A DNA stretch of 64,000 nucleotides from an uncultured SAR86 cluster bacterium (GTDB lineage Bacteria > Pseudomonadota > Gammaproteobacteria > Magnimaribacterales > D2472). The notes under the pieces were generated by a model that was given only the letters and a program-made list of their open reading frames with translations, did not search any database and was not told the origin of the DNA. Below are positions 51,944 to 53,602 of the stretch, piece after piece. Made by a program: the position numbers and the translations under genes. The number at the start of each line of letters is the position of its first letter. Within the stretch, counting starts at the first letter, position 1. The stretch lies in contig CACOLO010000003.1 of assembly GCA_902628085.1 (NCBI GenBank), positions 1,476 to 65,475 on the forward strand. The letters are read 5' to 3'.

Positions 51944-52159
51944 ATGAACAAAAATAAGCAATATAGAATTGAGAAAGGTCTTTTGTTGTTCACTCAGCCC
52001 AGATCACCTTATTTTTATGGCAAGTTTCGTATTAATGGAAAATATAGAACGCAATCTTTTGCACCAATATCTAATATTGAAGATGCAAAGAAAAAGCTTT
52101 ATGAATGGCGCGAAGAAATTATTGAACAAGAAAATAGTTTTAGTGCGGTACGAAATAAC
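51944..52159 (+). other. Integrase-like (arm-type DNA-binding domain) segment fused in frame to the 5' end of gltD
   Basis: aa 1-72: ...[59 protein letters not shown]. This follows the P4-family integrase N-terminal pattern GLyL.V.P.Gs..W..rYRi.GK......G.yP..SL.eAR.......r..l....ntF..VA. Recognised by eye only, with no HMM run. Confidence 0.4.
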
Positions 52160-53602
52160 ATTTCGTCTGACCGAAACGAATACGTATCTTTTGAAAAATT
52201 AGAAAATAATTTTCAATTCTTGGATGTTGGACGATATGATCCTAGCAAAAAAACTCCTGATGAGAGAAAAATTGAGTTTATTGAAATATATGGTGAATAC
52301 AATCAAGTTCAAGCATCAAATCAAGCTCATAGATGTCTAGACTGCGGTAATCCATATTGCGAATGGAAGTGTCCAGTTCATAATTATATTCCTGATTGGC
52401 TTAAACTCGTCAATGAAGGCAACATAATGGAAGCAGCTGACCTTTGCCATTCAACTAATAGTTTACCCGAAGTTTGTGGGCGAGTTTGTCCACAAGATCG
52501 TTTATGTGAAGGCGCTTGTACACTTAATGACGGTTTTGGAGCGGTAACAATAGGCTCTATTGAAAAATATATTACTGAAAAAGCATTTGAATTAGGATGG
52601 AAGCCTGACTTATCAAATAGAAAATGGACTGATAAAAAAGTTGCAATTGTTGGTTCAGGTCCTGCCGGTATAGCTTGTGCAGATGTTTTAACAAGATCTG
52701 GAATAAAAAGTAATGTTTACGATAAAAATGAAGAAATTGGCGGATTGTTAACATTTGGCATACCAGAATTTAAGCTAGAAAAATCAGTTGTAAGAAGAAG
52801 AAGAAAAATACTTGAAGATATGGGAATAAATTTCCATTTAGGAAAAGAAATAGGTAAAGACATACCTTTTGAAAAATTATATAAAGAACATGATGCAGTC
52901 TTTCTAGCTATGGGAACATATACGTCTCTTGAAGGTGGTTTTAAAGGAGAAAAATTACCTGGAGTATATAAAGCAATAGATTATCTAATTTCAAATACAA
53001 AAAAACTGCTAAATATGAGCACTGGAAACACTGAACATATTAATTTCAAAAATAAAAAAGTTATTGTTCTTGGTGGTGGAGATACAGCTATGGATTGCAA
53101 TAGAACCGCAATAAGACAAGGAGCGAAATCAGTAACTTGTTTATATAGAAGAGATGAAAAAAATATGCCTGGATCGCGAAGAGAAGTTAAAAACGCTAAA
53201 GAAGAAGGTGTTATTTTTAATTTCAACATACAACCTATTGATATTATTGGCAATGATAAAGTAGAAGGCGTAAAAACTGTTCGAACGATTCTTGGTGAGC
53301 CTGATCAAAATGGAAGAAGAGTTCCAGTTCCCCTTTCAGGATCTGAAAAAATTTACGATGCTGATGTAGTTATTGTTGCTTTTGGTTTCAGAGCTAGTCC
53401 AGCCTCATGGTTCAGTGAATTCAATATTAATACGAAAAATAATGGTCTTGTTATTGCTGAGGAGGAACAAGAATTCAAGTTTCAAACCTCCAATGAAAAA
53501 ATATTTTCAGGTGGAGATATGGTTCGAGGATCTGATTTGGTGGTAACTGCAATTTGGGAGGGGAGAGAAGCAGGCAAAAGTATAATAAAATATGTTTCAT
53601 GA
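51944..53602 (+). CDS. gltD: Glutamate synthase small subunit with a non-canonical N-terminal extension
   Basis: The GltD core starts near codon 89 ([15 protein letters not shown]...KIEFIEIY). It contains [42 protein letters not shown] and [15 protein letters not shown]. The only alternative start near the core is TTG at 52220. Confidence 0.93.

Follow-up and report, generated by a model that had tools for sequence, protein, structure and literature searches.

An integrase-derived N-terminal domain and candidate operator sites at the gltD gene of SAR86 bacteria

Introduction

Trigger enzymes such as PutA, BirA and NadR carry a fused DNA-binding domain and regulate their own genes. In PutA this is a ribbon-helix-helix domain of cellular origin, and its regulatory function is proven. 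A related precedent is given by the AP2-integrase superfamily, which comprises the N-terminal domains of lambda and Tn916 Int, the plant AP2/ERF factors and the apicomplexan ApiAP2 factors; AP2/ERF and ApiAP2 factors are thought to derive from mobile-element domains, exapted as transcription-factor domains. Here we describe gltD, the gene for the small subunit of glutamate synthase, with an unusual 5' end, in a stretch of 64,000 nucleotides from an uncultured SAR86 cluster bacterium (GenBank assembly GCA_902628085.1, contig CACOLO010000003.1, positions 1,476 to 65,475 of the forward strand; referred to as the window). SAR86 is among the most abundant bacterial groups of the surface ocean, is essentially uncultured and has few recognisable regulators. 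Glutamate synthase is the entry point of nitrogen into biomass.

Like PutA, GltD is a flavoenzyme with a putative DNA-binding domain at its N-terminus. Enzyme and domain share one polypeptide, as in the trigger enzymes, and a candidate operator is found at the gene's own promoter; as at putA-putP, it is located in the spacer of a divergent gene pair. In contrast to PutA, the GltD domain and its candidate sites stem from a mobile element, and we infer their function. Full-text literature searches revealed no GltD or Rieske protein with such a domain, in agreement with what an earlier inspection of the DNA (the sequence-only reading) had supposed for GltD, and no description of gltD regulation in SAR86.

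Transfer RNA (tRNA)-adjacent integrases, namely KplE1 IntS and P4 Int, repress their own promoters via arm-type sites that overlap the integrase (int) promoter Pint; the integrase has an arm-binding N-terminal domain, and tandem arm repeats, with the promoter inside them, separate the attachment (att) core from the int ATG (PMC2951348). The integrase relatives identified in this study display exactly this layout. The gltD module differs from it in that a metabolic enzyme takes the place of the recombinase body, no att core or tRNA is present at gltD, and inheritance across SAR86 is vertical. We assign a probability of roughly 60% to the interpretation that a domesticated integrase 5' module, consisting of arm sites and arm-binding domain, autoregulates gltD and probably the divergent gltB. 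On this reading, gltD encodes an enzyme-regulator fusion for which a mobile element supplied both the DNA-binding domain and its operator.

Results and discussion

GltD carries an in-frame N-terminal extension

The window is AT-rich (GC content about 0.32), and a protein identical to its gltD product is on record in public assemblies. A search with the GltD model TIGR01318 aligned model positions 1-465 with residues 90-551 at 722.7 bits (cut-off 482.95). With this full-length match above the curated cut-off, and with the Fe-S and FAD/NAD(P)H domains represented by Pfam Fer4_20 and Pyr_redox_2, which begin at residue 109, the protein belongs to the GltD family. Since the TIGR01318 match starts at residue 90, residues 1-89 are an in-frame addition, which confirms the extension described in the sequence-only reading. 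Codons 1-92 contain no stop, no internal ATG and no internal GTG, as had been stated for the codons ahead of the core. TTG at 52220 (codon 93) had been regarded as the sole alternative start; TTG is also found at codons 14 and 15 of the extension. A Pfam scan detected no recombinase catalytic domain in the protein.

The extension is homologous to the N-terminal domain of marine integrases

We searched a set of 1.8 billion representative proteins exhaustively with a profile of the GltD N-terminal domain (N-domain). Besides GltD fragments, two further groups of sequences were found, integrases and PetA proteins. The integrase P0102 (392 amino acids (aa)) was matched at an E-value of 9e-6. This protein aligns with phrog_1 'integrase' at 2.9e-15 over residues 18-377, and its relatives match the Pfam family PF00589 (Phage_integrase) at 28-32 bits (gathering cut-off 27.1), which identifies them as demonstrable tyrosine recombinases. 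In these proteins the homologous domain (residues ~10-70) precedes a SAM-like core-binding domain (~75-170) and the catalytic domain (~215-365) and, judged from this order, is at the canonical position of the arm-binding domain. Pairwise comparisons with hhalign showed 99.0% probability (E 2e-18) for the GltD extension and the integrase N-domain, 98.1% (E 7e-14) for the GltD and PetA extensions and 99.9% (E 3e-36) for the PetA extension and the integrase N-domain. On the evidence of these profiles, the GltD extension is homologous to the N-terminal domain of a distinct family of marine tRNA-integrating tyrosine integrases. Together with the tandem repeats that appear to have been captured along with it (see below), this upholds the earlier proposal that the 5' end of an integrase gene, encoding an arm-type domain, was fused to gltD.

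Searches with the extension alone against Pfam, NCBIfam and PHROGs returned nothing significant, and its profile gave no matches among Protein Data Bank (PDB) sequences. Its best Pfam match was Arm-DNA-bind_3 (PF13356, P4-type, formerly DUF4102) at 13.1-13.6 bits and E-values of 0.08-0.11, seen in three of 20 family members and below the gathering cut-off of 27 bits. For DUF6538 (PF20172) no match was found with the GltD extension; it was the best Pfam match of the domain in PetA and the integrase relatives, which reached 11.7-17.7 bits, again below the 27-bit gathering cut-off. The sub-threshold matches to both families (11.7-17.7 bits) fall in the right region of the profiles. As the thresholds of both Pfam arm-domain models are missed, the domain should not be filed as a P4-type arm domain, and the 'P4-family' label of the sequence-only reading has to be dropped; by Pfam criteria the domain is an unmodelled relative of the arm families and not a member. 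The same reading had placed the start of a core-binding domain within the extension. Reliable alignment to the integrases stops at about residue 66-70 of GltD, and homology running into their core-binding domain is unsupported past residue ~70.

A confident AlphaFold2 (AF2) model of the N-domain from a mixed alignment (predicted local distance difference test (pLDDT) score 89.5) shows strands at residues 6-10, 13-18, 21-30 and 33-38, followed by a long helix at 45-67. In the linker, pLDDT values below 50 were obtained at residues 76-81. Residues 1-42 contain nine basic and one acidic residue. The model predicts a small beta-sheet with a helix, a possible likeness to AP2-integrase domains, and the best PDB match of both models is the AP2 DNA-binding domain 6sy0, a member of this fold class, at a non-significant Foldseek E-value of 0.3-0.5. 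Unlike the three-stranded sheet of AP2-integrase domains, the modelled sheet has four strands, and the domain is fused to an enzyme and not part of a dedicated factor. A search of the model against BFVD returned nothing. No further copies of the N-domain were found in the window or in the 12-kb SAR86 loci.

The N-domain is under purifying selection across SAR86

A scan with one genome per species gave 98 matches, from which 80 loci were kept; they belong to SAR86 or to unclassified marine gammaproteobacterial metagenome-assembled genomes and include the reference bins SAR86A, SAR86B and SAR86E. The extension is fused to the GltD core in all 80 loci, far beyond what chance would give. The fusion is thus not special to this genome and appears to span SAR86; nor is it confined to GltD, as PetA has a parallel one. 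A single intact frame of 549-555 aa is present in 77 loci; among the other three, L047 and L062 are cut by the contig end, and in L025 the fusion is confirmed over the first ~170 codons only. A conserved KNKQY is preceded by ATG (once GTG) at a distance of 2-4 codons. Beside gltD, a divergent open reading frame (ORF) of ~1475 aa was counted in 78/80 loci. In some loci it is truncated where the locus stops, and for two loci no start was called.

Alignment of 76 species revealed 43% invariant columns in the N-domain (23/53, aa 3-55) and 49% in the enzyme core (aa 90-552). In the linker (aa 56-89) 9% of the columns are invariant (3/34), with a mean identity to the window sequence of 37%. The invariant residues of the N-domain are encoded by 2-6 synonymous codons each (six for L15, four for T17, P19 and S21). 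Since synonymous codons vary at invariant residues, what selection maintains is the protein, not the underlying nucleotides, and these substitution patterns indicate that the N-domain is under strong protein-level purifying selection.

GltD is therefore built from a folded domain, a variable linker and the enzyme, and this anatomy excludes a decaying remnant or a mis-called start. A neutral or decaying extension, with the real start at TTG 52220, could be read from the many short frameshifted fragments in metagenome assemblies. A protein search with residues 1-89 gave 83 short relatives (52-89% identity), many of which are indeed fragments ending in adapter-derived peptides or frameshifts. These fragments terminate in the adapter-derived peptides or break off at a homopolymer of A7-8. 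Of the 80 species genomes, 77 keep the frame intact and two of the remaining three stop at a contig end; the amino acids do not vary, whereas synonymous sites are saturated. The pseudogene reading, for which the sequence-only reading had named comparison with orthologues as the test, accordingly failed, and we give it next to no credence.

The homopolymer is an A7 run at 52244-52253 of the window (within ...AGCAAAAAAACT..., codons for DPSKK). Metagenome GltD fragments P0001, P0002, P0006, P0015, P0040, P0059, P0060 and P0070 are frameshifted exactly there, and a frameshift at this run after DPxKK would give a free N-domain protein of ~105 aa. A run of at least six A is present in 64 of 79 species and absent in 15, for which reason programmed slippage is less likely than a homopolymer assembly error. 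In a few metagenome proteins (P0032 (L032 region), P0093 and P0058) the GltD N-domain is joined to unrelated sequence, namely an enolase C-terminal-like segment (PF13378), a TatD-like hydrolase and a tail resembling a methyltransferase. Chimeric assembly most likely accounts for them, though genuine cases could represent additional fusions.

Arm-type repeats of the integrase relatives follow the N-domain

Ten integrase loci were read for their att layout. In all ten, int adjoins a tRNA-derived att core. In the two genome-integrated loci this core is a full tRNA-Phe gene; in the remaining loci, some of them apparently unintegrated copies, it is a tRNA 3' segment that was typed by eye as Phe or Ile. 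Between core and int ATG, the P' arm consists of an A-tract, two direct repeats with a 10-bp period, the sequence TTATACT, which is a good -10 hexamer, and one inverted copy of the repeat. A second pair of direct repeats is found on the other side of the core where the contig reaches past it.

Four types of repeat motif occur at the integrase genes: TTGAACAG, ATGAACAG, ATACACAC and ACATGCAC. P0284 and P0241, with 78% identity in the N-domain and 54% in the rest of the protein, have the same repeat and different tRNA targets. P0284 and P0267, with 62% identity in the N-domain and 83% in the rest, share the tRNA target, and their repeats differ by one base. In these comparisons the repeat sequence follows the N-domain and not the tRNA target, and the repeats are therefore assigned as arm-type sites of the integrases. 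As far as sequence analysis can tell, arm-type repeats that flank an att core and follow the N-domain are thus a property of the integrase relatives; at gltD the direct repeat pair is present and the att core is absent. The N-domains seem to have been exchanged among integrases independently of the remaining protein.

Such integrases are carried by small integrative elements of ~8 kb in AT-rich marine bacteria (L086-L093 and L259-L262, e.g. L091 4780-5060 and L090 5810-6000). Besides the tyrosine integrase, these elements encode a serine resolvase and a REP_ORF2-G2P replication protein; they target tRNA-Phe or the 3' end of an Ile-type tRNA (the latter read by eye). Their attP is highly stereotyped: direct repeat pair, core, A-tract, two direct repeats, TTATACT, inverted repeat, int. 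A scan of IMG/VR for this integrase family found nothing.

An invariant repeat pair precedes gltD

The spacer between gltB and gltD contains two GTCATAC cores at 51911-51917 and 51921-51927 (GTCATAC-N3-GTCATAC), 16 nt upstream of the gltD ATG. Both cores are exact in 80/80 SAR86 loci, at a distance of 4-35 nt upstream of the ATG. Apart from the A-tract and the repeats, the spacer cannot be aligned among SAR86 species. The pair occurs once in the 64-kb window. Its layout, an A-tract followed by two direct repeats at a 10-bp period, matches the P' arm of the related int genes.

The -35 hexamer (ATGACA) of a candidate gltB promoter is the reverse complement of repeat 1. Promoter-like sites in this region are no more numerous than in shuffled sequences, and the candidate promoter is a weak lead. 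A third TGTCATACT lies within the 5' end of gltB (51726-51732), 185 bp from the pair. As an equivalent copy at a similar offset is found in only about a third of the SAR86 species, it is probably a coding coincidence.

Related integrative elements circulate in AT-rich marine bacteria, and the gltD module might itself still take part in recombination or in a mobile-element conflict, as a decoy that titrates arm-binding or as an attachment region. A scan of IMG/VR for GTCATAC-N3-GTCATAC returned 120 loci, none of which encodes the N-domain, and these are therefore regarded as chance matches; a metagenome scan for two direct repeats plus inverted repeat returned 26 loci, again none with the N-domain. 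With no element or integrase carrying GTCATAC sites found in these scans, a locus that is syntenic and uninterrupted in 80/80 species and a protein that lacks the recombinase catalytic domain, a recombinational role is very improbable.

Among the scanned loci, L173 (IMGVR_UViG_3300032301_000238) displays at 2671-2720 five perfect tandem GTCATACTAT units followed by GGGTATAAT. The contig is viral, AT-rich and 67 kb long. The genes around the array look like genes of a large eukaryotic virus, with no N-domain among them, and the array is probably a coincidence of the repeat unit.

A parallel fusion in PetA

The PetA sequences P0104-P0106 are Rieske iron-sulfur subunits of cytochrome bc1 with a homologous N-domain of ~70 aa, placed ahead of the Tat/anchor segment; the fusions are ~265 aa long, compared with 194 aa in ordinary relatives. 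Fused petA is the first petABC gene within rplM-rpsI-petABC-sspA. It is odd in itself that a respiratory subunit anchored in the membrane should have a putative DNA-binding head in the cytoplasm. The contigs with PetA fusions and integrases have a GC content of 0.33-0.36, and one member of the protein cluster is named uncultured gamma proteobacterium. Comparison with the SAR86 loci revealed no shared genes, so that assignment to SAR86 is not supported; the hosts of PetA fusions and elements are AT-rich marine bacteria.

The PetA N-domain is 57-68% identical to the N-domains of integrases with TTGAACAG repeats, or with ATGAACAG repeats where the locus was read. Upstream of petA, TTGAACAC...TGTTCAA occurs twice, first after rpsI and a second time abutting the ATG (TGTTCAAAATG), and the site pairs (TTGAACA/TGTTCAA) stand either side of a TATAAT box. 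They equal the arm sites of those integrases that are closest in the N-domain. From this correspondence, two unrelated enzymes each independently captured such a domain along with its apparent cognate sites.

The inverted copy abutting AUG at petA would also suit an N-domain that binds its own messenger RNA (mRNA) leader (GUCAUAC twice at gltD) and thereby autoregulates translation, possibly co-translationally in cis. At gltD the repeats lie 4-35 nt upstream of AUG, and in the window no clear Shine-Dalgarno sequence is present, both in keeping with a site in the leader. The homologous integrase domain, in contrast, is in arm-binding position and the repeats flank att cores, which speaks for a function on double-stranded DNA; moreover, with 4-8 nt between repeats and ATG in some species, the repeats may lie upstream of the transcription start. 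Binding to the leader is therefore quite unlikely in our judgement.

A non-DNA role is somewhat less remote, and still unlikely. In such a scenario the integrase-derived domain would now act at the protein level, in docking, assembly, stability or localisation of Fe-S redox subunits, and the GTCATAC pair would be a shared core promoter of gltB and gltD. The domain is indeed found on two Fe-S redox subunits, GltD and PetA, its matches to DNA-binding folds are not significant, and TGTCATACT resembles an extended -10 element, with the complement ATGACA resembling a -35 element 16 nt from TAAAAT. For a generic promoter, however, it is unexpected that the motif varies with the type of N-domain (GTCATAC at gltD, TTGAACA at petA, four motifs at the integrases) and that the petA sites are the arm sites of integrases whose N-domain is closest to that of PetA. 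Two exact copies at 10-bp spacing in 80/80 species exceed the need of one promoter, and the beta-sheet region is strongly basic.

Proposed origin and function of the gltD module

We propose that the 5' module of a gene for a tRNA-integrating tyrosine integrase was captured ahead of the GltD core in an ancestor of SAR86. The integrase gene would have contributed its P' arm, with A-tract and tandem arm-type repeats that overlap the int promoter, its start codon and, as coding sequence for the arm-binding domain, its first ~67 codons; this module would have been kept in SAR86 ever since. Most likely it still acts as in integrase genes: the N-domain, on a flexible linker of ~20-30 aa, would bind both GTCATAC sites, spaced by one turn of the helix, and thereby repress transcription of gltD. 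Transcription of gltB would probably be repressed too, given the overlap of its candidate -35 hexamer with repeat 1. The outcome would be a built-in negative feedback on glutamate synthase in a genome with few regulators. The two sites may be occupied by the N-domains of GltD oligomers; because one domain is needed for each of the adjacent sites, their occupancy should vary with the oligomeric or assembly state of GltD.

For the function of the extension, the sequence-only reading had offered a captured start for gltD or a retained DNA-binding domain. The latter is favoured because the domain is under purifying selection and the candidate operator is invariant; a merely captured start is not.

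Several points weigh against autoregulation by a domesticated module. DNA binding and repression, and likewise the repeats as target and the link to the state of the enzyme, are predictions from comparative sequence analysis. The GltD extension does not reach the Pfam arm-domain models, and none of its structural matches to DNA-binding folds attains significance (Foldseek E 0.3-0.5). The inverted third copy of the integrase loci is absent at gltD, and the IMG/VR and metagenome scans found no living integrase with GTCATAC arm sites. Since TGTCATACT and its complement ATGACA could serve as an extended -10 and a -35 element, respectively, promoter function alone could explain part of the motif conservation.

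If the proposed autoregulation is true, a regulator built into glutamate synthase would explain part of core-metabolism control in such genomes, the parallel regulator on the Rieske subunit of cytochrome bc1 would extend this control to respiration, and the locus would provide a clear-cut case, from bacteria, in which a mobile element's protein domain was domesticated jointly with its DNA sites. A broader suggestion, which we hold tentatively and at somewhat less than even odds, is that streamlined marine bacteria repeatedly made the int 5' module a portable autoregulatory cassette on core-metabolism genes. Such a cassette would consist of arm-type sites, promoter and arm-binding domain and, with similar reserve, would have been captured at least twice, at gltD and petA. 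This would represent a previously undescribed route from mobile-element parts to host gene regulation, and expression may be coupled to the assembly state of the subunit. The autoregulation proposed for gltD involves a domain of 67 aa, a spacer of 93 bp and two sites of 7 bp, and is directly testable in vitro without culturing SAR86.

Features of the locus and its surroundings

Table 1. Positions of the gltB-gltD features in the window and of the PetA-fusion loci in their own sequences
Feature	Position	Strand	Basis or remark
gltD with N-terminal extension	51944..53602	+	ATG start, 552 aa plus stop; ORF list, translation
Integrase-derived N-terminal domain, aa 1-67	51944..52144	+	AF2 model, hhalign, profile search, conservation
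Variable linker, aa 68-89	52145..52210	+	low column conservation, low pLDDT
Canonical GltD core, aa 90-552: 2x[4Fe-4S] domain and FAD/NAD(P)H oxidoreductase	52211..53602	+	TIGR01318, Fer4_20, Pyr_redox_2
gltB, glutamate synthase large subunit, 1475 aa	47423..51850	-	divergent from gltD; ORF list
gltB-gltD spacer, 93 bp, with both promoters and the repeat pair	51851..51943	.	sequence
A-tract directly 5' of the repeats	51900..51908	+	motif-anchored consensus AAaAgTGTCATACTatGTCATAC
Two 10-bp direct repeats, TGTCATACTA and TGTCATACTC	51910..51929	+	candidate arm-type sites / operator for the GltD N-domain
Candidate sigma-70 promoter for gltB, ATGACA-16-TAAAAT	51888..51915	-	consensus scan, 10/12 matches
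PetA-fusion loci	L081 3838-4012; L085 3800-4003		also L083, L094, L095, L102, L223-L231

Downstream of gltD, the next ORF (53554-54636, + strand, 360 aa) is called from TTG and overlaps the last 49 nt of gltD; its real start is probably located further downstream.

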